A DNA stretch of 64,000 bases from Slackia sp. (GTDB lineage: Bacteria; Actinomycetota; Coriobacteriia; Anaerosomatales; Anaerosomataceae). The position numbers and the translations under genes are program-made. The stretch spans positions 72,119 to 136,118 of the forward strand of contig DYEA01000008.1 of assembly GCA_020725885.1 (NCBI GenBank). The letters are read 5' to 3'. The first letter of the stretch is position 1. Every line of letters begins with the position of its first letter. The notes beneath the pieces are model-generated. The model had not been told where the DNA came from, did not search any database, and was given only the letters and a program-made list of their open reading frames with translations. Of this stretch, positions 7,079 through 42,849 are shown one piece after another.

Positions 7079-7819
7079 ATGGCACACTCGACAGCCATCG
7101 CCGAGATCGCCGGCCGCGACAGCGTCGCGGCGGCGGTGGTCGCCGTGCGCGAGCACGGGTTCACGACGATCGTCCCCACGATCGGATTCACCGGCACGGA
7201 GACCGGCGACCGAGAAGCCCCGTACCGTGCCGTGAGCCGTCTCCGGAACCTGCTCGCAGAAGAAGCGGCGGTGCTTGACCCGGTGCCGCTGTCGGACCCT
7301 GCGCTCTGGTCGGCGATGAACGCGGCGCCGATGGCAGAGGTGCTCAGACGCTACGGGGTCTGCTCGCCCTGCCTCGCGTGCCACCTGTACCTGCACCTGC
7401 TCCGGGTCCCGCTCGCCTGGTCGCACGGCAACGCACCGGTCATCTCAGGCGAGCGCGATTCGCATGATGGCCGCATCAAGCTCTCGCAGACGTCGCACAG
7501 CATCGATGCCGCCACGCGCGTGCTCGCGTACGCGGGAATCCGGCTGCTCGCGCCGATCCGCTCGATGGGCGGGACGGAGATAGCAGCCATAGTGGGATCC
7601 GAGTGGCGCCAAGGCGAGCAGCAGATGGGCTGCCAGCTGTCGGGCAACTACCTCGCGCTGGACGGCAGCGTGCAGTACGACGAGACCGGCTACGAACGCT
7701 ACCTGCGCGAGTTCTTCGAACCCGTCGGCCGCGCCGTCGTCGACGCGTACCGGGCGGAGCGCGACGGCGGCAGCGCCAGCGACTTCGCCGCAGTGGTGGG
7801 GTCGGTGCTCGCGCGGTGA
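7079..7819 (+). CDS. Hypothetical protein with PP-loop-like motifs (AGRDS / SGERDS) and a CSPCLACH Cys cluster
   Basis: ATG 7079 is in frame with track ORF 7007-7819 and follows GGAGAGGGGG. The motifs weakly resemble the adenine-nucleotide alpha-hydrolase (PP-loop) superfamily. The specific function was not recognised. Confidence 0.5.
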   Translation: MAHSTAIAEIAGRDSVAAAVVAVREHGFTTIVPTIGFTGTETGDREAPYRAVSRLRNLLAEEAAVLDPVPLSDPALWSAMNAAPMAEVLRRYGVCSPCLACHLYLHLLRVPLAWSHGNAPVISGERDSHDGRIKLSQTSHSIDAATRVLAYAGIRLLAPIRSMGGTEIAAIVGSEWRQGEQQMGCQLSGNYLALDGSVQYDETGYERYLREFFEPVGRAVVDAYRAERDGGSASDFAAVVGSVLAR

Positions 7820-7847
7820 GGACCTGGCGGCAGACCGGAGGCCGCTC

Positions 7848-20567: not shown

Positions 20568-21784
20568 TCGCGTACCTCGACTGCGCGGCCACCGGCATCT
20601 CCGGCGACAAGCTCCTCGGAGCGCTCCTCGCCGCAGGGTTCCGGATCGACGACCTTCGGACGGCGCTGGCGCCTCTCAGGCTCGCGGACGCCGTCACGAT
20701 CGTAAAGCGGCGGACAGGCGGTCTGGCAGCCGTCGGCGTCGAAGTCGCCGAGAAGCCTGGCCTGCCGCTGCGCACGTTGCCCGAATTGCGCGACGCCGTC
20801 CGCGCCGCAGACGCGCCCGAGCCTGCGCGCGCGGCCGCCGAGCGCATCCTGCTGGCGCTCGCCGAGGCGGAGGCCCAGGTGCACGGCGTTCCGCTCGAGG
20901 AGGTGCACTTCCACGAGGTCGGCGCAGCGGATACGGTCGTAGACGTCCTAGGGGCGGCGCTCGGACTTCACGCGCTCGGCGTCGAGGAGCTCGTGTGCAG
21001 CCCGATCGCCGTGGGCAGCGGGACCGTCGCCGCCGCGCACGGCGTCCTTCCCATCCCCGCTCCCGCGACCGCGCTCCTCCTTCGCGGCCTGCCGGTCGTG
21101 CCAGGCGCAGCCACCGGCGAGCTCACCACGCCGACCGGCGCTGCGATCGTCCGGACGCTCGCCGCTTCCTTCGGCGAGCCGCCGCCCATGCGTGTGACGG
21201 GCGCGGGCCTCGGCGCTGGAACTCGCGACCTCGGCGTGCCCAACGTGGCGCAGCTGCTCGTGGGGGAACCGATGGCGCCGCAGCCGGCGCCTGATGGCAC
21301 GGAGCGCGTGACGCTGCTCGAGACCAACGTCGACCACCTCTCGCCCGAGACGCTCGCCTATGCGTGCGAGCGGCTGCTGGAAGCCGGCGCGCTCGACGTC
21401 TGGCAGACGCCCATCGTGATGAAGAAGGGCCGCGCCGCGTACCTGCTGAGCGCGCTCGCAGAGCCCGTGACCGCAGCAGATATCGCCCGTACGATCATCC
21501 GCGAGACCGGCTCGCTCGGCGTGCGCGTGGTCCCGGCTGAGCGCTTCGTCGCGTGGCGCACCGTCGTCGAACTCGACACGCCGCTCGGCCGTGCGCGCTT
21601 CAAAGTCTGGCGCGCCGGCGACCGCACCGGATGCCGCGTCGAGCACGACGATGCAGCGCGCATCGCGCGCGAGCGCGGACTGCCGATTATGGCGGTCGAG
21701 CACGAGCTCAACCACAGCGTACAGCACGAGGAGATTGCAATTAGTCCATTCTACTCTCCCGGCTTACCGATACCGGAAGATTGA
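20564..21784 (+). CDS. larC: Nickel insertion protein LarC (DUF111 family)
   Basis: VIAYLDCAATGISGDKLLGALL and HFHEVGAADTVVDVLG signatures. GTGA start/stop overlap with larB. The last ~17 codons fall in low-GC DNA at the island junction. Confidence 0.8.
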   Translation: MIAYLDCAATGISGDKLLGALLAAGFRIDDLRTALAPLRLADAVTIVKRRTGGLAAVGVEVAEKPGLPLRTLPELRDAVRAADAPEPARAAAERILLALAEAEAQVHGVPLEEVHFHEVGAADTVVDVLGAALGLHALGVEELVCSPIAVGSGTVAAAHGVLPIPAPATALLLRGLPVVPGAATGELTTPTGAAIVRTLAASFGEPPPMRVTGAGLGAGTRDLGVPNVAQLLVGEPMAPQPAPDGTERVTLLETNVDHLSPETLAYACERLLEAGALDVWQTPIVMKKGRAAYLLSALAEPVTAADIARTIIRETGSLGVRVVPAERFVAWRTVVELDTPLGRARFKVWRAGDRTGCRVEHDDAARIARERGLPIMAVEHELNHSVQHEEIAISPFYSPGLPIPED

Positions 21785-21797
21785 ATTCATAAATCAA

Positions 21798-22763
21798 TCA
21801 CATAGGCGGGATGTTGGTAAGAACTAGTTCGCTAATGGAATTTCGGCGAGACCCTTGCGCCGCAATTACTCGGGGGGCGCGAATCGTATGGACACGCAGA
21901 CCGGCTTCTTTAGCATCCCGGCTCTCGTAAAGCGCCCGTATGCGTTCCGTATCGCTGTTGCTAACTACTACTCGAATCCCCGGGTGGGTCTCGAGTATCT
22001 TCAGCACGGACAAGAAAAGGGTCTGGTGATCTTGCCAGCCGAACCCCTGGGAGGTGTACGAGGTGAACGACCCCTCATCTCCTGCGTCATATGGCGGGTC
22101 CAGATAGACAATGTCGTTACTACCAACGCACTTTAGCGCGTCCTCGTAGCTTCCACTCAGAAGTGCAATACCCTGAAGGAGACGCGAGAATCGTTTCAGA
22201 CGGGGGCCGGTAGTTGCCAGGAATGCCGCCGGCTGATTAGCAGCAGGTCTGCCGACCGGCACGTTGAATTCACCTCGCGAGTTAACTCGCCAAAGGCCGT
22301 TGAAGCAGGACCTGTTCAAGAACAGCAGGAGGGCCGCCCTTCTTGTTCTCTCTTCGCTCGTCGAGTCGCCAGCCTTGCTGATTAGCTCATTCATTTCGTC
22401 TCGTCGATCGAGGTAGTAGCGCCGGAAGGACTCCTCACCAAGGCAGCTTTCGGCCTCAGCTGCAATCTGTCCAATCTCGCCCAAGAGAGCTTCAAGCCGG
22501 TCCCTGCACACGGAGTAGAGGTTGATAATCTCCGTGTTCGCATCTGCCAGCAGCCCTCGCAGCGGCTGTACATAGCAGGTTAGTGCTGCGCTGCCGGCAA
22601 AAGGCTCCACCAAGCGAGCATCACCGCCTGGAGCCCATAGAGCTTCAAGCGCTTGCGGACCAAGAATGCGAGCTAGCTTGGGAGCGATTCTCCACTTACC
22701 CCCTGCCCACTTAAGTATCGGGCGTACAACGTCTCGCTGGAACACAGGGGTGCCTGCGTTCAT
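21798..22763 (-). CDS. Dam-family (D12 class) N6-adenine DNA methyltransferase
   Basis: PILKWAGGKWR (AdoMet motif I), FLNRSCFNGLWRVN and the DPPY catalytic motif (VYLDPPYD). The ATG at 22763 overlaps the upstream stop (ATGA). Confidence 0.85.
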   Translation of the reverse strand: MNAGTPVFQRDVVRPILKWAGGKWRIAPKLARILGPQALEALWAPGGDARLVEPFAGSAALTCYVQPLRGLLADANTEIINLYSVCRDRLEALLGEIGQIAAEAESCLGEESFRRYYLDRRDEMNELISKAGDSTSEERTRRAALLLFLNRSCFNGLWRVNSRGEFNVPVGRPAANQPAAFLATTGPRLKRFSRLLQGIALLSGSYEDALKCVGSNDIVYLDPPYDAGDEGSFTSYTSQGFGWQDHQTLFLSVLKILETHPGIRVVVSNSDTERIRALYESRDAKEAGLRVHTIRAPRVIAAQGSRRNSISELVLTNIPPM

Positions 22764-23299
22764 GATTGCGCCTGGTCGGATGGGTGGGGTATCAGCTTGC
22801 CACGCGACGAACGCCTGCATACCAACTCGAATCCAAACCTATCGCGAAGGTCGGTCTCGGCCTTAACGATTTCGGCGGGAGAAGTGCTGGAAGAGGTATC
22901 CACAAGGAAAAGCGCTGAGCGCTTGAAGCCCGCGCATGAATACAGGGCCGCCTGTCCAATCGCTCCAGACAGCACGCTGTTGCTCTTGGACTGAGCAAGA
23001 AGCTTGACTTCAACAGCGAGCACCAACTCCTTCTTCCAGACGACGGCAACGTCCGGGTAGAACCAGCGTCCCAGCATATGGTACGCGTAGGCTTGCTGGC
23101 CGGTGCCATCCCCAAACACCACGATGCCTTCGCCCGCAAGATCGCTGAGACAGGACTTCACAAGGGGGACGAGAGCCCTTGCGGTATAGGCAATTTCCTT
23201 CTCTTGGTGCGCTGGTGCTGGAATCTCATGCGTGCGGAGAACCCCGATTAAGCGCAACGCAAGGGCTTCGATATGTCGAGGTTCCGGATCGCGGCCCAT
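22760..23299 (-). CDS. Small (179 aa) PD-(D/E)xK nuclease-fold protein; candidate cognate restriction or nicking endonuclease (MutH/Sau3AI-like?)
   Basis: YPDVAVVWKKELVLAVEVK supplies a D...E-x-K catalytic triad in restriction-endonuclease-like spacing. The gene is translationally coupled to the methylase. Confidence 0.45.
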   Translation of the reverse strand: MGRDPEPRHIEALALRLIGVLRTHEIPAPAHQEKEIAYTARALVPLVKSCLSDLAGEGIVVFGDGTGQQAYAYHMLGRWFYPDVAVVWKKELVLAVEVKLLAQSKSNSVLSGAIGQAALYSCAGFKRSALFLVDTSSSTSPAEIVKAETDLRDRFGFELVCRRSSRGKLIPHPSDQAQS

Positions 23300-23301
23300 A
23301 T

Positions 23302-24594
23302 CTACCCTTTCAATACGTCGTCGAGATCCGGGCTGGGTCGAAGCTGCCTGACGATACCCTTCTTCTTGGCTTCATCAGACTCGGAGACATCCATGAGAAC
23401 CTCGGCCACACGAGCCGCTCCGGCAAGCCCTGCGATGCCCTTCCAGCGCTCGTCGGATTTCCTCAGCAACTCCTCATCGATGGCAGCAAGCCTGCGCCTG
23501 AAGTCCTCGGTGGACACCCTTTCATGTTCGACCGCCTCGTCGAGCAGCATCCCGCCAAACTTGGCAAAACCGCCCAAGCCTATCGATTGCATGAGGATGT
23601 AATCCGCCCGGTTCTGCCAAGCGGTCGGAAAAGCCTCCTTGACTGCGCGCCAGTACCGGTCAATCAGCTCAAGCAATGCATCGGGATCGTCTTTCAGAAC
23701 ATAGGCCGTCCTCGGAGCGTTCTTGATTTGATAGTCGATGGTTGACTTCAGCGCATTTAGCTTTACCGGCGGAGTCTTGCCGCCCGTTGCACGCAGGACG
23801 CCTCGCTTGGATCCCCCGAGGAAGACAACGCCTTCGAATGCGCGCCCGCTCTTGCTGAGCTCGTGGGCAATCCACAAGGGCAACGTCTTCGGGTTCGACT
23901 TCAGTTGGTTTGGGTCATGCAGCCTCACGGCGAGGTTGTCCAGATGGGCCGTCTCCATACCCTCGTGCTCGCCGTTGATATCTCTGAATAGCGCGGCTTC
24001 CGGTGTATCGTCCAACCCAATCAGCAGCGAGAACGGCACGACGGGGAAGACCAGTGGCTCCTCGTCATCTGAATCGGTCATCTGTGCAAGGTAGTCGTCC
24101 GCTCCGTACAGCCGATGATTGCCATCAACGCGACTAATCTGTGGCTTGTAAAGTGGTTTCGGGAATTCCAGGCGTTCGACAAGAACTCGCAAACCAACGA
24201 CCGAGGGTAGCTCCGCCGAGTCGGAAAAGGAGTCCACCTCCAGCACGCTAGAAGGGTTCTCGAGTTCATATATCTCGATGACTCGCGGGTCCCGTACATT
24301 CAGCAACACTTCGGGGAAGAACCTGGGATCCTCCTCTGGTGCTACGAAGGGGGACTTGATGGCGTATTCAAAGCACTCCTGCGCATGCTTCTTCTTCAAC
24401 GCCCTCTGGGTGCCCGTGGGATTCTCGTATTGGTCATACACATCTGGGGCAGAGATGATGGCAAGCTGGTCCAGGCGACCATGACCCCTAAGAACAACTA
24501 GATTCAAGTTGCCACCTAGCAGGCATGGACCGAAATCGATGCGGCTGCTGAATCTCCTCAGCACCAGTTCGCGACTATGCAGCAAATCAGCCAT
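23302..24594 (-). CDS. DGQHR-domain protein (DndB/DpdB-like ParB-fold protein)
   Basis: QISRVDGNHRLYG is a DGQHR-motif variant. It is the first gene of the island operon, 3 nt before the nuclease-like gene. RBS GGAGAGGAG. Confidence 0.65.
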   Translation of the reverse strand: MADLLHSRELVLRRFSSRIDFGPCLLGGNLNLVVLRGHGRLDQLAIISAPDVYDQYENPTGTQRALKKKHAQECFEYAIKSPFVAPEEDPRFFPEVLLNVRDPRVIEIYELENPSSVLEVDSFSDSAELPSVVGLRVLVERLEFPKPLYKPQISRVDGNHRLYGADDYLAQMTDSDDEEPLVFPVVPFSLLIGLDDTPEAALFRDINGEHEGMETAHLDNLAVRLHDPNQLKSNPKTLPLWIAHELSKSGRAFEGVVFLGGSKRGVLRATGGKTPPVKLNALKSTIDYQIKNAPRTAYVLKDDPDALLELIDRYWRAVKEAFPTAWQNRADYILMQSIGLGGFAKFGGMLLDEAVEHERVSTEDFRRRLAAIDEELLRKSDERWKGIAGLAGAARVAEVLMDVSESDEAKKKGIVRQLRPSPDLDDVLKG

Positions 24595-24889
24595 TGATTC
24601 CGCTCCTCTCCAAATAGTCCTCTCAAGTTCATTGCTAGTCTACAAGACCGGCCTGACATTGATTGGACCTTCAAGAACGCTCCCTGTCCGAACAATCGCA
24701 AGCATAAGATTAGGGCCCGCCGGAGGGGCGACCAGCGGGCCCTTTCCGCTGCCACCAGATTCTTTCCAGCGCCCGAGGCAGCGGGTTCTCGGCGCTAGCG
24801 CCCACTTCAGGAGCGCCTACCGAATCTGATTGTGGTATCGGCACGAACACCGCTCGGGTTGAGCCGATTTCTGGCAAGCGCCCGCAGCG

Positions 24890-34580: not shown

Positions 34581-34666
34581 TGGTGCGGGTGAGAGGAGTT
34601 GAACCTCCACGGGGTTGCCCCCACATGGACCTGAACCATGCGCGTCTGCCATTCCGCCACACCCGC
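34581..34666 (-). tRNA. tRNA-Leu(CAG)
   Basis: Reverse complement: GCGGGTG-TG-GCGGAATGGCAGACGC-G-CATGG-TT-CAG-GT-CCATG-[variable arm TGGGGGCAACCCCG]-TGGAGGTTCAACTCCTC-TCACCCGC-A-CCA. Confidence 0.9.
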
Positions 34667-36071: not shown

Positions 36072-37736
36072 ATGGACGAACCCCGCATCCTCGACCGCTA
36101 CCGTCCGCTCGCACGCCTCGGCGAAGGCGGCTATGGATCGGTCGTGCTCGCGTACGACACGAAGATGGCGCGGCGCGTGGCCATCAAGCATCTTCCGCTG
36201 CCGCCAGGCTCGCTGCGTGCACGTTCCCGCGCGCTGTCCGAGGCACGGACCGCGGCGATGCTCAACCACCCCGCCATCGTCACCGTCTTCGAATGGGAGC
36301 CGACCGACGACGGCGCGCTGTTGGTCATGGAGCACGTGGACGGCGCGTCGCTTGGGGAGGTGCTCGACGAGCTCGACGGCCCGCTCGATCTGGACGAGAC
36401 GGCCGCCATCGTCGACGCGGTCGCCGACGCGCTTTCGTTCGCGCACGCCAACGGAGTGCTGCACCTGGACCTGAAACCGGAGAACGTCCTCATCGACCGC
36501 GACGGTCGCGTGAAGGTCGCCGATTTCGGCGTCGCCGCGCTCACCGGCGTCGATCGCACCGGGACCCCTCGAGGCGGCACGCCTGGGTACATGGCTCCTG
36601 AGCACATCCGCGGCGAGCCGGTCACGCCGGCCGCGGACCAGTGGGCGTTCGCCGCTCTCGTCTACGAGATGCTCACCGGCGTCTGCCCCTTCGGGGCGGA
36701 CAGCCCGCAGCGCTCGCTCGTGCGCATCGAGGCGCGGAGCCTCCGGCCGGCGAGCGATCTCGCGAGAGGCCTTCCCCGCGGCGTCGACCTCGTGCTTGCG
36801 CGCGCGCTTGCACCCGACCCGCTCGAACGCTACCCGGACGTGACGACGTTCGCCGAGGCTCTGCTCGATCACCTCGGCGATACTCTGGCTGGCCGCGAGT
36901 CCCTCGCGGACGTGGTCGAGGATATCGTCGCCGAGGAGGAGCCGCCGGAAAGCGGGCCAGGCGTGTGGGATCGTCTTGTCGGCCGGCAAACGCTGCTCGG
37001 GCGCGCCGCAGCAGTCGTCCCCAGCGCCTGGCTTGGCTGGGCCGGCGCTTCTTGGGTCGCAGGAGGCGCAGGCGGGCTCGCAGCCGCAGTCTTGTGCGGT
37101 CTTGCCGCCGCCATCGCGCCCGCCTTAGGGCTTGCGCTCGCATTGCTTGCGACAGCCATGGGGGCAGGTGCAGCTTTCGGACCCGTCGCCGGAGCGGCCG
37201 CCGGGATCGTCGGGGCGCTGTGGTGGCTCGCCCTGGGACGGCGGCGCCCCGGGGCAGGCTTCGGCCTGCCGAGCGCGCCGCTCCTGGCGGCGATGCGCGC
37301 GGGTGCCGCCGCGCCGCTCGCGCTCGGCTTCTTCGCGGAGCCTGCTCCGGCCGCTGCCGCTGGGGCCGCCGCTGGAGCGCTGACGGCGCTGCTCTCCGCG
37401 CTCGCGCCGGATGCTCCGTCGGCGATCGCGCTGCCGATCGGCGTTCTTTCCGCCCCGTGGCGCTCGTTCGATCTGGCGCGTCTCGCCGGGCTGGACGTGC
37501 GCCTGCTCCTTGCAGTCGCCGCGTCATGGGGCCTTGCCGCACTCGTTGCGTCTCTCGGATCAGGCAGGGGCACGCGGCTCGGCGCGGCGCTCGGTCTTGC
37601 GAGCGGGCTCTCGCTGATGGCGGGCGCGCTCGCGGCAGTCTCGCCAGCGGGTCTCTCGGCCGCCCTGCCAGACCTTGCCGTCGCCGGCGCAGCGGCGGCT
37701 CTGGCCGTGGCGGCGGGCCCCTCGCCGCGCGGCTGA
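36072..37736 (+). CDS. Hanks-type Ser/Thr protein kinase with a long Ala/Gly-rich multi-TM C-terminal region
   Basis: Kinase subdomains GEGGYGSV, AIK, HLDLKPEN, DFG, GTPGYMAPE. The C-terminal ~250 aa is hydrophobic and Ala/Gly/Leu-rich. Confidence 0.85.
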   Translation: MDEPRILDRYRPLARLGEGGYGSVVLAYDTKMARRVAIKHLPLPPGSLRARSRALSEARTAAMLNHPAIVTVFEWEPTDDGALLVMEHVDGASLGEVLDELDGPLDLDETAAIVDAVADALSFAHANGVLHLDLKPENVLIDRDGRVKVADFGVAALTGVDRTGTPRGGTPGYMAPEHIRGEPVTPAADQWAFAALVYEMLTGVCPFGADSPQRSLVRIEARSLRPASDLARGLPRGVDLVLARALAPDPLERYPDVTTFAEALLDHLGDTLAGRESLADVVEDIVAEEEPPESGPGVWDRLVGRQTLLGRAAAVVPSAWLGWAGASWVAGGAGGLAAAVLCGLAAAIAPALGLALALLATAMGAGAAFGPVAGAAAGIVGALWWLALGRRRPGAGFGLPSAPLLAAMRAGAAAPLALGFFAEPAPAAAAGAAAGALTALLSALAPDAPSAIALPIGVLSAPWRSFDLARLAGLDVRLLLAVAASWGLAALVASLGSGRGTRLGAALGLASGLSLMAGALAAVSPAGLSAALPDLAVAGAAAALAVAAGPSPRG

Positions 37737-37822
37737 GCGGTGACCAAGCGGCAACGGACGCGCCCGCGCGTCGCCTGCCCTGCTATGATGCACCTGCTGA
37801 CACCTGCATCGGAGGATGCGGC

Positions 37823-38530
37823 ATGGGCATCCTGGCTGATTTCGAGGACCGCATAGCCCGCAGCATCGAGGGGCTCTTCGCGGGCGCGTTCAGAGCGCCG
37901 GTGCAGCCTGTTGAGCTTGCCAAGGCGCTGGCGCGCGCCATGGACGACGGCCGCGTCGTGGGCGTGGACGCCGTGCTCGCTCCGTGCTCGTTCACCGTAG
38001 CGCTCTCCGAAGAGGACGCCGACGAGTTCGGCGACTTCACCTCGACGCTCGCTGGCGAGCTTGCGACGTACCTCGCAGACCACGCGCGAGAACGCGGCTA
38101 CCGCCTCGAGGGCAGGCCCGAGGTCCGGTTCGTCACTCACGAGGACCTGCGCCTCGGCCGGTTCCGGGTCGCGGCATCGCTCGTCCCAGCAGCCCCTGCG
38201 CGAGATGCGACCGGCCCGCGCAGCGCGACCCCGACGGCCCGCGTGCTCGCCACGGTGACCGTCGACGACTTCGACCACGACGTGGTCCTGGACGGCGACC
38301 AGGTGACCGTGGGACGGCTCAAGGAGTGCCAGATCCGGCTTGACGACGCGAACGTCTCTCGCCGACACGCTGCGTTCATCCGGTTGCCGGACGGATGGGC
38401 CATCGAAGACCTCGATTCCACGAACGGCACGCGTGTCAACGGCAAGTCGATCACGCGGGCGCGTCTTCACGACGGGGACATCATCGAGATCGGACTCTCC
38501 CGCCTCGTCTACCACGAGTCCAAGGAGTGA
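37823..38530 (+). CDS. fhaA: FhaA-like protein (DUF3662 N-domain plus C-terminal FHA domain)
   Basis: ATG 37823 has GGAGG 7 nt upstream. The FHA core is GRLKECQIRLDDANVSRRHAAF...STNGTRVNG. The upstream part of track ORF 36641-38530 is antisense junk. Confidence 0.8.
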   Translation: MGILADFEDRIARSIEGLFAGAFRAPVQPVELAKALARAMDDGRVVGVDAVLAPCSFTVALSEEDADEFGDFTSTLAGELATYLADHARERGYRLEGRPEVRFVTHEDLRLGRFRVAASLVPAAPARDATGPRSATPTARVLATVTVDDFDHDVVLDGDQVTVGRLKECQIRLDDANVSRRHAAFIRLPDGWAIEDLDSTNGTRVNGKSITRARLHDGDIIEIGLSRLVYHESKE

Positions 38531-38953: not shown

Positions 38954-40101
38954 GGGCCGCGTCGCGCCGTCATGAATGGTACGCGGGCGCGAGCGACGTC
39001 GGGCTCGTGCGGCCCGGCAACGAGGACGCCTTCTTGATGGAGCCGCCTCTGTTCGCGGTCGCAGACGGCCTCGGCGGCCACCGGGCCGGCGAGGTGGCGA
39101 GCACGGTCGCCGTCGAGACGCTCTTCGCGCACGCCCCGAAGCACGCCGATGCGAAGGGCCTCGCGCGGGCTGTGCGCGCGGCGAACGCCGCGGTGATCGA
39201 GGCCGCCGAGCAAGGCCGCGGACGAGAGGGCATGGGCACGACGCTTACCGCTGCGATGGTCGAGGGGACCCGCATCGCGCTCGCGCACGTCGGCGACAGC
39301 CGTGCGTACCTGCTCGCGCGAGGCGAGCTGGTGCAGCTCACCCAGGACCACTCGCTCGTCGGCGACATGGTGCGGTCCGGCACGCTGTCTGCGGAGGCCG
39401 CCCGCGTCCACCCGAACCGGAGCGTCATCACCCGCGCGCTGGGCTCCGACCCGAACATGGTGGCGGATGCCTTCGAGGTCGAAGCGTCTCCGGGCGACAG
39501 GCTCCTGCTCTGCACCGACGGATTGACAGGGATGGTCGAAGACGCCGCCATCGCCGAGGTGCTTCGGACCGCCCCCTCGCCGAAGGCCGCGGTGGCCCGC
39601 CTGATCGCCGCCGCCAACGACGCCGGCGGCCACGATAACATCACGGTGGTCGTGGTCGACATCGGGGCGGACCGTTCCCGCGAAGACCGGACGAGCGCCG
39701 CGACGCGCGGGAATCCCAGTGCTGACGCGCGCGAGCCCGGGCGTTCGCCTCGGCGGGTCTGGCTGGCTCGTCTGGCGTGGGCGCTCGCGCTTGCCGCGGC
39801 GGTCGGCGGCGCTGTGCTCGCCGCACGCGGCTACGCGCGGTCTCAGGCGTACCTTGCGGTGGTGGACGGCCGCGTCGCCGTCTACCGCGGCGTGCCTGGC
39901 GAGTTCGCTGGGGCGCAGCTGCATTGGCTCGAGCAGGTCACAGACGTCCCGGTGGCTGGCCTCGACCCCGTGACCGCGGCGCGTCTCGCACGCGGCATCC
40001 GGGTCGACGGGGTCGCGGCGGCCTTCGACTTGGTGGCCGCGTACCGCTCGCAGACTGCGCGCGAGTCGAACCCGTCCGCTGAGCCGACGACCGCGCCCTG
40101 A
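38950..40101 (+). CDS. pstP: PP2C-family Ser/Thr phosphatase (PstP-like) with a C-terminal TM
   Basis: DVGLVRPGNEDAF, FAVADGLGGH, LCTDGL and DNITVVVVD PP2C motifs. The GTGA start overlaps fhaB. Confidence 0.9.
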   Translation: MRAASRRHEWYAGASDVGLVRPGNEDAFLMEPPLFAVADGLGGHRAGEVASTVAVETLFAHAPKHADAKGLARAVRAANAAVIEAAEQGRGREGMGTTLTAAMVEGTRIALAHVGDSRAYLLARGELVQLTQDHSLVGDMVRSGTLSAEAARVHPNRSVITRALGSDPNMVADAFEVEASPGDRLLLCTDGLTGMVEDAAIAEVLRTAPSPKAAVARLIAAANDAGGHDNITVVVVDIGADRSREDRTSAATRGNPSADAREPGRSPRRVWLARLAWALALAAAVGGAVLAARGYARSQAYLAVVDGRVAVYRGVPGEFAGAQLHWLEQVTDVPVAGLDPVTAARLARGIRVDGVAAAFDLVAAYRSQTARESNPSAEPTTAP

Positions 40102-40110
40102 GGAGCGGCC

Positions 40111-42849
40111 GTGCGCACTCGCCGCGACACCGAGCTTCTCCTTCTGCTGGCGGCGACGCCGCCGGTGCTGCTGCTCTTCGCACTCGTGCACAGCGCTGCG
40201 GCGCAGTCGTTGGCGTGGCGAGACCTCGCTGTGCCGTTCGGGCTGCTCGCGGCATTCGCTGTCGCGCACCTGACCGCCCGCCGCTGGGCGCCGGGCGCCG
40301 ACCCCGTCCTGCTGCCGCTCGCCTTCCTGCTGACCGGCGTCGGGCTGGCGTTCGTCACCCGCCTCGCGCCCGACCTCGCCCCCGCCCAGACCCTGTGGGT
40401 CTTCGCGGGCGTAACCGCGCTGGTCGGCACGCTCGCAACGGTACGCTCGATCGAGCGGCTCGCCCGGTACAAGTACACGGTCGCTCTCGGAGGCGTGGCG
40501 CTCCTGCTCCTTCCCGCAGTTGCCGGCGTGGAGGTCAACGGCGCGAAGCTCTGGCTGCGCGTCGGCGGCGTCTCGTTCCAGCCAGTCGAGGCTGCCAAAG
40601 TGCTCGTGGTCGTGTTCCTTGCGGCGTACCTCGCCGAGAAGCGCGAGCTCCTGTCGGTCTCCACGAAACGCGTGTTCGGCGTGTGGATGCCCCCGCTCAA
40701 GCACCTCGGGCCGCTGCTTCTCATGTGGTCGCTCTCGCTCGTCGTGCTCGTGGCCGAGCGCGACTTAGGGTCGAGCCTGCTGCTCTTCGGATTGTTCCTC
40801 GCGATGCTGTACGTAGCGACCGGCCGACCGGGCTACGTGCTCGTCGGCGCGGCGCTCTTCGCGGCGGGCGCGGTCGGCGCATACCTGCTGTTCGGCCACG
40901 TCGCGGCGCGCGTAGCGATCTGGCTCGACCCGTTCGCGGACGCGGCCGGGCGAGGCTACCAGCTCGTCCAGTCGCTCTTCGCGTTCGCGGCGGGCGGCAT
41001 GACCGGCACCGGTCCGGGCCGAGGGCTCCCGACCCGCATCCCGTTCGTCGACACCGACTTCATCTTCGCCGCCATCGGCGAGGAGCTGGGGCTCCTTGGC
41101 GCCGCCGGCCTGCTGATCGCCTACCTGGTGTTCGCCGCTCGTGGCTTCGCGACGGCCGCGCGGGCCCGCTCGGACGTCGGGGCCTTCGTGGCAGCCGGCG
41201 CCACGACGGTCATCGCGCTCCAGACGTTCGTGATTGCCGCAGGCGTGACGCGGCTCGTCCCTCTCACCGGCATCACGATGCCGTTCGTGAGCAGGGGCGG
41301 GTCGAGCCTGCTCGCGAACTTCGTGCTGCTCGGGCTCCTCATGCGCGCCGGCGACGAGGGCACGGGACGCGCCGAGCAGCTCGCCACCACCGGAGCGACC
41401 GGGGCGCTCGGACGCGTCGCGGTGGCCCGCAGGCTGGCAGCGCTGACGCGCGTCCTGGCGTTCGCGCTCGTGGCGGTGGTGGTCAACCTCACGTACCTGC
41501 AGGTGGTCGCGGCTCCGGCGCTCGCCAACCACCCCGCCAACACCCGTCGGATCGCAGACGAGATCCGGCAGGAGCGCGGCGCGATCGTCACGCACGACGG
41601 CGTCGTGCTGGCGCAGTCGGTGCCTGCCGGCCGCGCGTTCGAACGGCGGTATCCGGGCGGAGCGCTCGCGCCGCACGTCGTCGGCTACAGCAGCCCGACG
41701 TACGGACGAGCGGGCATCGAGGCGGCGATGAACGAGGTGCTCGCCGGCCGGCGGATGTTCGCGTCGATGCGGGACCTCGTCGACGCGCTCGCGGGCACGC
41801 CCGTGGCGGGCAACGACGTGCGGCTCACGATCGACAGCCGCGTGCAGCAAGCAGCCGTTGCGGCGCTCGAAGGTCGGCGTGGAGCGTGCGTCGTGCTCGA
41901 CCCGCGAGACGGCCGCGTGCTCGCGCTCGCGTCGAGCCCCGGCTTCGACCCGGCCGCGATCGACGACGACTGGGGGCGGCTTTCGGCGGACCCCGCCGCT
42001 CCCCTGCTCAACCGCGCGGCCCAGAGCCTCTACCCGCCGGGCTCGACCTTCAAGGTCGTCACGCTCGCAGGCGCCGTCGGAGCGAAGCTCGTCACGCCAT
42101 CGACGACGTTCCCTGGCCCCGCTCGCCTCGAGATCGGCGGGGCGCCGGTGACGAACTACGGCGGTGAGGGGTACGGCACCGTCACGGTCGAGCGGGCCAC
42201 CGCCTCGAGCATCAACACCGTCTTCGCGCAGATCGCCGACCGCATGGGGCCGGACCTGCTCGTGAAGACAGCCCGGAGCTTCGGCTTCGGCGAGCAGCCG
42301 CCGCTCGAAATCCCGGCGAAAGCGTCGCTCATGCCCGACCCCCGCGAGATGACGCGCTGGGAGACGGCGTGGGCGGGCGTCGGACAGCCCGTCGGCGAGC
42401 ACCCGAGCCCGCCAGGGCCCCAGGTCACCGCGCTCCAGATGGCGCTCGTGGCAGCCGGCATCGCGAACGACGGCGTCGTGATGCAACCGTACCTGGTGGA
42501 GGCGATCACGGACCCTGCCGGCCGCACGCTGTCCACCACGCACCCGAAGCCGTGGAAGACCGCCTGCGGCGCGCAGACCGCAGCCACCGTGCGCGACATG
42601 ATGGTGACGGTCGTGCGCTCGGGCTCGGGCACCCGCGCCGCCATCAAAGGCGTGACTGTCGCTGGCAAGACCGGGACCGCGGAGGTCGGCAAAGGTGCGC
42701 AGACGCACGCTTGGTTCATCGCGTTCGCGCCGGCGGAGCAGCCGCGCGTAGCGCTCGCGATCGTGCTAGAGAATTCGGGCGTCGGGGGCCGCGTGGCAGC
42801 ACCTGCGGCAAAGCCCGTGCTGGAGACCGCGCTATCGCGGGTGCGATAG
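40111..42849 (+). CDS. Single-polypeptide fusion of a SEDS glycosyltransferase (RodA/FtsW, N-terminal ~420 aa) with a class-B penicillin-binding transpeptidase (PbpA/PBP2, C-terminal ~490 aa)
   Basis: N-terminal half: 10 TM helices, GGVSFQPVEAAKV and ITMPFVSRGGSSLLANF SEDS signatures. A retained TM helix LTRVLAFALVAVVVNLTY follows. The PBP dimerisation and transpeptidase domain has SxxK (PGSTFKVVT), SxN and KTGTA. One uninterrupted 912-codon frame; AGGAG RBS. Confidence 0.85.
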   Translation: MRTRRDTELLLLLAATPPVLLLFALVHSAAAQSLAWRDLAVPFGLLAAFAVAHLTARRWAPGADPVLLPLAFLLTGVGLAFVTRLAPDLAPAQTLWVFAGVTALVGTLATVRSIERLARYKYTVALGGVALLLLPAVAGVEVNGAKLWLRVGGVSFQPVEAAKVLVVVFLAAYLAEKRELLSVSTKRVFGVWMPPLKHLGPLLLMWSLSLVVLVAERDLGSSLLLFGLFLAMLYVATGRPGYVLVGAALFAAGAVGAYLLFGHVAARVAIWLDPFADAAGRGYQLVQSLFAFAAGGMTGTGPGRGLPTRIPFVDTDFIFAAIGEELGLLGAAGLLIAYLVFAARGFATAARARSDVGAFVAAGATTVIALQTFVIAAGVTRLVPLTGITMPFVSRGGSSLLANFVLLGLLMRAGDEGTGRAEQLATTGATGALGRVAVARRLAALTRVLAFALVAVVVNLTYLQVVAAPALANHPANTRRIADEIRQERGAIVTHDGVVLAQSVPAGRAFERRYPGGALAPHVVGYSSPTYGRAGIEAAMNEVLAGRRMFASMRDLVDALAGTPVAGNDVRLTIDSRVQQAAVAALEGRRGACVVLDPRDGRVLALASSPGFDPAAIDDDWGRLSADPAAPLLNRAAQSLYPPGSTFKVVTLAGAVGAKLVTPSTTFPGPARLEIGGAPVTNYGGEGYGTVTVERATASSINTVFAQIADRMGPDLLVKTARSFGFGEQPPLEIPAKASLMPDPREMTRWETAWAGVGQPVGEHPSPPGPQVTALQMALVAAGIANDGVVMQPYLVEAITDPAGRTLSTTHPKPWKTACGAQTAATVRDMMVTVVRSGSGTRAAIKGVTVAGKTGTAEVGKGAQTHAWFIAFAPAEQPRVALAIVLENSGVGGRVAAPAAKPVLETALSRVR

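Follow-up and report, generated by a model that had tools for sequence, protein, structure and literature searches.

A recurrent three-gene module of a DGQHR-domain protein, a small predicted nuclease and a Dam-family methylase: a candidate restriction-modification-like defence system

Three genes on the minus strand were found in a 64,000-nt stretch of Slackia sp. DNA (contig DYEA01000008.1; the whole stretch is called the window), which encoded a DGQHR-domain protein, a small protein with the predicted fold of a PD-(D/E)xK nuclease, and a Dam-family DNA methyltransferase (methylase). Many environmental bacteria carry the trio as a recurring unit, and it most likely represents an undescribed defence system resembling restriction-modification (R-M). 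No description of a DGQHR-nuclease-methylase trio was found in the full-text literature searched. The three open reading frames (ORFs) were intact and filled positions 21798-24594, as placed by an earlier interpretation made from the letters alone (the sequence-only reading). That reading was also right that the second and third genes overlap as ATGA, and it gave the first gap as 3 nt, which is in fact a 2-nt spacer (TAG-AT-ATG) between the stop of the DGQHR gene and the start of the second gene.

The three genes and their predicted products

The DGQHR protein was matched by TIGR03187 over residues 53-349 with 67.3 bits (cut-off 58.85). A QR pair, the DGQHR pentapeptide and FxxxN are the defining motifs of the domain (PMC4619093), and all of them were present as Q63-R64, D157-G158-N159-H160-R161 (nt 24112-24126; DGNHR, with Q replaced by N) and F203xxxN207, so the first gene had been named correctly. 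Across 91 homologs (40-54% identity) all motif residues (9 of 10) were invariant except R161, which was kept in at least 90%, and every motif residue was invariant in an alignment of 25 homologs. The N-terminal half (residues ~1-210) was an alpha/beta ParB/Srx-like domain and the C-terminal half (~215-430) was all-helical and DndB/DpdB-like; the AlphaFold2 model showed a ParB-like fold of the ParB/Srx type. The protein is therefore predicted to be a DndB-type ParB/Srx-fold nucleoside triphosphatase (NTPase) with intact nucleotide-binding motifs, and its action would depend on NTP.

The models of the known relatives were matched weakly. Pfam DndB (PF14072) gave 26.7 bits, below the gathering score of 29.1, with a match only at residues 305-386, and DpdB (NF041060) gave 25.2 bits (cut-off 300); a TGT-like neighbour was not found. 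Sequence and profile searches of the PDB with the DGQHR protein and the small protein as queries returned nothing meaningful. When the trio was compared with PADLOC-DB 2.0, as the sequence-only reading had suggested, no described system was matched: the DGQHR protein gave weak DpdB and DndB matches (1.4e-6 and 0.03), the methylase matched generic MTase_II models, and the small protein had no match.

The small protein had no match in Pfam, NCBIfam or PHROGs either. A word-indexed search returned the protein itself alone, and its family could be found only by an exhaustive HMMER scan, which gave 178 cluster representatives, all of them stand-alone proteins of 100-205 amino acids (aa), mostly ~160-180. 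The predicted fold was that of a restriction endonuclease with a PD-(D/E)xK core. BamHI, OkrAI and BstYI were the best structural matches, and the Foldseek comparison with the PDB was weakly significant (best E-value 2e-3). E35, D83, E97, K99, G115, Q116 and Y120 were invariant in 80 homologs, which gave the family the signature E...PD...ExK followed by QxxxY; in the window protein these are E97-V98-K99 and, after K99, Q116xxxY120. Thus the nuclease fold and the acidic triad (D83, E97, K99) that had been proposed for the second gene were both recovered. The MutH/Sau3AI-like alternative left open by the same reading was not supported, with no PF02976 or NF040973 match and an hhalign probability of 0.2% against MutH-like neighbours. 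Kinship of the family with DpnII-like, MutH-like, DUF6997 and HEPN neighbours was also tried by hhalign, and none was found (MutH-like and DpnII-like below 1%). Numerous homologs exist for each gene, and AlphaFold2 models reached predicted local distance difference test scores of 93.2 and 94.7, the latter for the DGQHR protein, so the genes are real and not chance ORFs.

The longest ORF of the methylase began at 22820. With the ATG that overlaps the stop of the nuclease gene the product is 321 aa long, and the same gene model was carried by an independent assembly of this sequence. The assignment of the third gene to the Dam class was borne out by TIGR00571 (205.9 bits, cut-off 114.85), PF02086 (139 bits, cut-off 22) and the presence of DPPY. 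DpnM (2.8e-30) and Escherichia coli Dam (EcoDam, 8e-26) were the closest solved relatives. The residues with which EcoDam reads GATC have been identified (PMC4417163), and at K9, Y119, N120, L122, R124 and P134 the window methylase had K, F, N, L, R and P, with Y138 not conserved. In 53 distinct linked methylases N120, R124, P134 and DPPY were invariant, K9 was K or R, L122 was L, V or M, Y119 was aromatic and Y138 varied. Since these contact residues are kept and DpnII-like and MutH/Sau3AI-like nucleases are present in sister loci, GATC is the likeliest site of the N6-methyladenine (m6A) mark, and a probable one. No other methylase exceeded 34% identity to that of the window, and the loci of its nearest relatives are not those of the nearest DGQHR relatives. 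This mismatch suggests that the methylase has been exchanged.

Table 1. Features of the trio and its surroundings in the window
Feature	Position	Strand	Basis or remark
DGQHR-domain protein, 430 aa	23302..24594	-	TIGR03187 match; includes QISRVDGNHRLYG
Small PD-(D/E)xK nuclease (predicted), 179 aa	22760..23299	-	Fold and invariant catalytic residues
Predicted catalytic residues of the small nuclease	E35; D83 (23051-23053); E97 (23009-23011); K99 (23003-23005)	-	
Dam-family (D12 class) N6-adenine DNA methyltransferase, 321 aa	21798..22763	-	TIGR00571, PF02086
DPPY motif of the methylase, residues 222-225	22089-22100	-	
Low-GC island, ~3.05 kb	21700..24750	.	200-nt GC profile; from the last ~28 larC codons to the hairpin
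Upstream intergenic region, low GC	24595..24712	-	Promoter presumed here; GC 0.51 at 24500-24699
Ribosome-binding site GGAGAGGAG	24603-24611	-	8 nt before the DGQHR-gene ATG; read from sequence
G+C-rich hairpin GGGCCCGC-N14-GCGGGCCC	24713..24742	-	Read from sequence; ~150 nt past the HhH-GPD gene stop

Recurrence of the trio and its variants

Related loci were gathered through the DGQHR protein (73 from genomes and 80 from metagenomes, plus a few through the individual proteins), and all six-frame ORFs were searched with profiles built for the families. The clade of the window protein was defined by a profile score above 300 bits and at least ~35% identity, and comprised 58 groups non-redundant at 90% identity, among which 50 had at least 560 nt of DNA after the DGQHR gene and were informative for the downstream gene. 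The small nuclease gene directly followed in 49 of these 50 groups, at a median spacing of 7 nt (range -35 to +69). The sole exception (L143:2422-3105) had a truncated DGQHR gene (308 bits, ~228 aa), and the module there is probably decaying. Among the 25 loci that had long flanking sequence on either side, a D12 methylase was found in 23 and any methylase in 24; L006 had an N6_N4 methylase instead of the D12 enzyme, beside a MutH/Sau3AI-like nuclease. When the search was started in reverse from homologs of the small protein, the C-terminus of a DGQHR protein lay upstream in 3 of 3 informative contigs and a convergent D12 methylase was present in 2, on few and short contigs.

All-versus-all clustering of the ORFs from 77 loci gave only three broadly shared families, those of the trio, present in 73, 73 and 61 loci. 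Pairwise identities at 38 loci were correlated between DGQHR protein and nuclease (Mantel rho 0.49), DGQHR protein and methylase (0.47) and nuclease and methylase (0.38), each with p <= 5e-4. The DGQHR protein was the most conserved, with a mean pairwise identity of 0.40 versus 0.27 and 0.37 for the other two. The proposal of a distinct, co-conserved trio is upheld by these pairings, shared families and correlations. No dnd or dpd family, dndCDE included, was present in the flanks or among the recurrent neighbours of the 77 loci, which agrees with the earlier remark that such genes are missing and disposes of the idea that the DGQHR gene is a remnant of a dnd or dpd cluster.

The position of the methylase gene was variable. 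It was upstream and co-directional in 15 groups, often overlapping the start of the DGQHR gene, and convergent downstream in 28; the downstream co-directional order was seen in the window only. Thus the fixed unit is the DGQHR gene with the nuclease gene, and the methylase is a movable partner, exchanged at least once. This reverses the picture of the sequence-only reading, in which a DGQHR protein had been bolted onto a classic R-M pair.

A four-gene variant was observed at L012:5832-9678 and also at L013, L110, L118, L132 and L138-L141. The additional protein (423-430 aa, DUF6996+DUF6997+DUF7226) was encoded between the methylase and the DGQHR gene or on the far side of the methylase, and at L012 and L138 all four genes were co-directional in one operon. 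NCBIfam has no name for it and the PDB no relative; it is possibly a restriction enzyme. At L081:1516-2481, L100 and L101, a ~329-aa protein with an RSRIVHG (HEPN-like) motif adjoined the convergent methylase, which links the two clades of the DGQHR family through a shared accessory type.

The second of these clades is distant from the window protein (L014-L077 and L146-L161; ~370 aa, ~30% identity). None of its loci had the small nuclease gene, and only three had a D12 methylase nearby, never adjacent. A gene for a 183-aa or a 293-aa protein was located directly upstream on the same strand (e.g. L021:2535-3398, L041:2716-3282), the products of which had Rx4H HEPN signatures (RNxxAH, RSxxVHG) with sub-threshold Pfam HEPN scores. 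This clade looks like a separate two-gene system of DGQHR plus HEPN.

The distribution across phyla was patchy: Actinomycetota and Eremiobacterota accounted for most occurrences of the module, and isolated cases such as Methylopumilus were also seen. AIPR, Fic, HipAB, GmrSD, SNF2 helicase and integrases were encoded in the neighbourhood of related loci, a set typical of defence islands. A mobile-element origin was considered and rejected, as relatives were found neither in plasmids and phages nor in IMG/VR and no PHROG was matched; the family is chromosomal. Rathayibacter sp. Leaf299 (GCA_001423055.1) is a cultured strain with the module, which spans ~483.4-486.2 kb of LMNT01000002.1. Its small nuclease gene (L162 ~7314-7840, LMNT01000002.1) was detected with a profile E-value of 4e-45 and had not been called in the recorded gene set, and such missed calls may partly explain the obscurity of the family. 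In outbreak-associated clades of Mycobacterium abscessus subsp. massiliense, four marker accessory genes include one for a DGQHR-domain protein and one for a DpnIIA-type adenine methylase, for which no interpretation was offered (PMC9248903). These genes may belong to the same module.

The low-GC island and its flanks

The trio lies on an island whose GC content is 0.575-0.583 when measured over 1 kb and 0.51-0.615 when measured over 200 nt, with 0.62-0.75 in the remaining window and a step at ~24,700-24,800. The island had been described as a patch of ~50% GC; it is indeed the lowest of the window, at about 57% versus ~0.69. Its neighbours were housekeeping genes (prephenate dehydratase, GGDEF, LarB, LarC, HhH-GPD glycosylase, SufC, SufBD and UbiA), and no recombinase was present among the flanking genes, as stated before. 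No direct repeats were found flanking the island, and the four tRNA genes of the window were all distant, the nearest at 34581, ~10 kb off.

LarC was 441 aa long. The Pfam Ni_insertion model stopped at residue 413, the last ~28 codons (21700-21784) were in low-GC DNA, and the ORF ended 13 nt from the stop of the convergent methylase gene. The 3' end of larC seems to have been rewritten or replaced by insertion of the island, which was acquired horizontally.

At the other side, the hairpin probably serves as terminator for the upstream HhH-GPD gene and forms the island boundary there; it was not called by the terminator scan because it has no T-run. For the operon itself the scan gave no canonical terminator, and a sigma-70 consensus scan gave no match on the operon strand. 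The HhH-GPD gene was considered as part of the module and ruled out, since it had host-like GC and did not recur at other loci. Elsewhere in the window, 37001-38000 and 40001-41000 had AT skews of -0.35 and -0.32 at a GC of 0.72-0.75, with very long overlapping ORFs on both strands.

A candidate restriction-modification mechanism and its alternatives

The trio could be an R-M-like defence module in which the DGQHR protein and the small nuclease form a two-subunit, NTP-switched restriction enzyme with a probable GATC m6A self mark. A probability of about one half (0.5) is given to this reading. The methylase would mark host DNA with m6A, probably at GATC, and so protect it. The DGQHR protein would bind DNA and nucleotide, sense the modification and serve as a nucleotide-driven switch; on unmarked incoming DNA of phages or plasmids it would contact and activate the separate PD-(D/E)xK subunit, which would then cut or nick. 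By analogy, the restriction half may be a split counterpart of SspE, GmrSD and BrxU, or of McrB/McrC, keyed to the absence of a self mark.

This mechanism is favoured by the near-constant pairing of the DGQHR and nuclease genes, their link to a methylase, the conserved catalytic and nucleotide-binding residues and the defence-type neighbourhood. It is proposed also because several of its elements are known from related proteins. ParB/DUF262 domains are NTPase sensors of DNA modification which turn on the nuclease joined to them in SspE and GmrSD/BrxU, and a helical domain after the ParB domain is common to DndB, GmrSD, SspE and NsnA of the Menshen system (PMC12065111). A 2013 paper (PMC3632139) pointed out COG1479/DGQHR domains that are fused to HNH, PD-(D/E)xK or HEPN domains and associated with R-M loci, and ATP and GTP are bound by a DndB-like protein (bioRxiv 10.1101/2025.10.10.680097). 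In a more specific version, the ParB-fold DndB-type switch would itself read adenine methylation, load or clamp on unmethylated DNA and license a minimal PD-(D/E)xK nuclease, or HEPN RNases in the sister clade; this version is tentative and more doubtful than the general one.

The module resembles several known systems and is identical to none of those compared. With DndB and DpdB it shares the ParB-fold N-terminal domain, the helical C-terminal domain, the QR, DGxHR and FxxxN motifs and the weak match of their models to the C-terminal part. It differs from them in scores under the cut-offs, in DGNHR, in the lack of dndCDE and dpdA at the 77 loci, and in its partners, which are a PD-(D/E)xK nuclease and a base methylase instead of machinery for backbone or deazaguanine modification. 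SspE, GmrSD and BrxU have a DUF262 NTPase fused to a DUF1524 HNH nuclease, whereas the module has a DGQHR (DndB) type protein with no DUF262 or DUF1524 Pfam match and a separate PD-(D/E)xK nuclease. The linked mark also differs from theirs, being m6A by a Dam-family enzyme, and GmrSD and BrxU attack modified DNA, whereas the module is predicted to attack unmodified DNA. In McrBC, McrB is an AAA+ GTPase and not of ParB fold, no cognate methylase exists, and methylated DNA is cut.

The D12-class methylase, nearest to DpnM and EcoDam, is like those of the GATC Type II systems DpnII, MboI and Sau3AI. Unlike in these systems, the 179-aa nuclease is unrelated by sequence to DpnII and MutH/Sau3AI, and a conserved 430-aa NTPase is the obligatory third gene. 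Menshen is similar in that NsnA, its ParB-type sensor, carries a DndB-C-like helical domain and is sometimes found beside methylases without a nuclease, and targeting of unmodified DNA has been suggested for its ParB-DUF262 proteins located beside solitary methylases (PMC12065111). However, Menshen requires the ABC-ATPase NsnB and NsnC, neither of which is present here, and PADLOC gave no match to it.

Several observations weigh against an NTP-switched restriction enzyme. Characterised DndB acts on the regulatory or modification side and not in restriction, and the same is true of DpdB. No fusion of a DGQHR protein with the nuclease, which would prove interaction, was found among the homologs; the extra part of a 529-aa DGQHR homolog was an N-terminal Cys-rich extension. 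The host window showed no avoidance of GATC (372 sites versus 404 expected, ratio 0.92), nor did the pooled modules of 44 loci (677 versus 699.5, ratio 0.97). The island had 8 GATC versus 16.9 expected, a depletion not reproduced across the 44 modules, and none of the 4-bp palindromes stood out in the composition test; GATC avoidance was dropped as a target-site signature, being uninformative. In addition, the 179-aa protein could act as a self-sufficient Type II enzyme, a further gene adjoins the methylase as its possible own restriction partner in 9 of the 25 well-flanked loci, and at L105-L107 (e.g. L105:3-4294) the pair follows one gene of GmrSD type and one of MutH/Sau3AI-like type, with no DNA methylase detectable within 9.5 kb.

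The first of these last points leads to a plain Type II R-M system, in which the 179-aa protein would be the endonuclease, the Dam-family enzyme its methylase, and the DGQHR protein a transcriptional controller, analogous to a controller (C) protein, as DndB is for the dnd operon. DndB is described as an ATP-modulated autoregulator (see also PMC4507180). Both in the window and in the convergent layout, the DGQHR gene also comes first in its operon, like C then R opposite M, and the small protein has the size range as well as the best structural matches of Type II enzymes. This is opposed by the layout at 11 co-directional loci, where the methylase gene adjoins the longest DGQHR ORF or overlaps it by up to 17 nt, which leaves no separate control point for M and R. 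The DGQHR protein is moreover the most conserved of the trio, has invariant nucleotide-binding residues and, with 430 aa, is unlike the small helix-turn-helix controllers; its pairing with the nuclease is kept even at loci with another nuclease gene beside the methylase, and the sister clade combines it with HEPN proteins and no methylase, which argues for a sensor-plus-effector logic. A controller role is thus considered unlikely.

Slightly less probable still is that the pair is a modification-dependent (Type IV-like) or methylase-independent defence like GmrSD and BrxU, merely accompanying GATC methylases or R-M systems within defence islands. Its nearest mechanistic relatives, GmrSD and BrxU, do target modified DNA, and the loci L105-L107, the apparent exchange of the window methylase, and the nine loci with another candidate partner would fit. 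This partner was the DUF6996/6997/7226 protein in four of the nine, a PDDEXK_11 protein (146 aa, weak DpnII similarity) in three and a MutH/Sau3AI-like protein in two. At the other 16 loci no other DNase candidate was located beside the methylase, therefore the DGQHR-nuclease pair is the only possible restriction partner there; one of them had a HEPN-motif protein, and in the other 15, as in the window, the pair was the only nuclease candidate. A Type IV-like pair would leave the methylases of these 16 loci solitary and unexplained. It also fits poorly with the presence of same-class methylases at 23 of the 25 loci, where their genes often overlap those of the pair within one operon, and with methylase identities that co-vary with the DGQHR protein about as well as those of the nuclease do; a nuclease dependent on m6A at GATC would be self-lethal beside a GATC methylase. 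Housekeeping methyl-directed repair or nicking, with the small protein as a MutH-like strand-discrimination nuclease acting with Dam, is very improbable: the GATC-contact residues of the methylase and the MutH-like genes at sister loci would suit it, but the small protein has no similarity to MutH/Sau3AI, the genes are on a low-GC island between housekeeping genes, the distribution across phyla is patchy with integrases and defence genes nearby, and mutS and mutL are not among the recurrent neighbours.

If the NTP-switched restriction enzyme is the true function, the trio would be a compact three-gene defence system made of known parts in a new combination, and the first case of a DGQHR/DndB-type protein tied to base methylation instead of phosphorothioate or 7-deazaguanine. 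A ParB-type switch would take the place of the helicase or AAA+ motors of Type I, Type III and McrBC enzymes, giving a new class of NTP-dependent R-M systems, and would help to explain the role of DndB-like ParB-fold NTPases. The small nuclease family, with its 178 clusters, has been missed by current domain and defence databases and was left uncalled in at least one isolate genome. Because the module is present in Rathayibacter sp. Leaf299, and may be present in outbreak lineages of M. abscessus subsp. massiliense, it is a possible barrier to transformation and phage therapy in such bacteria.

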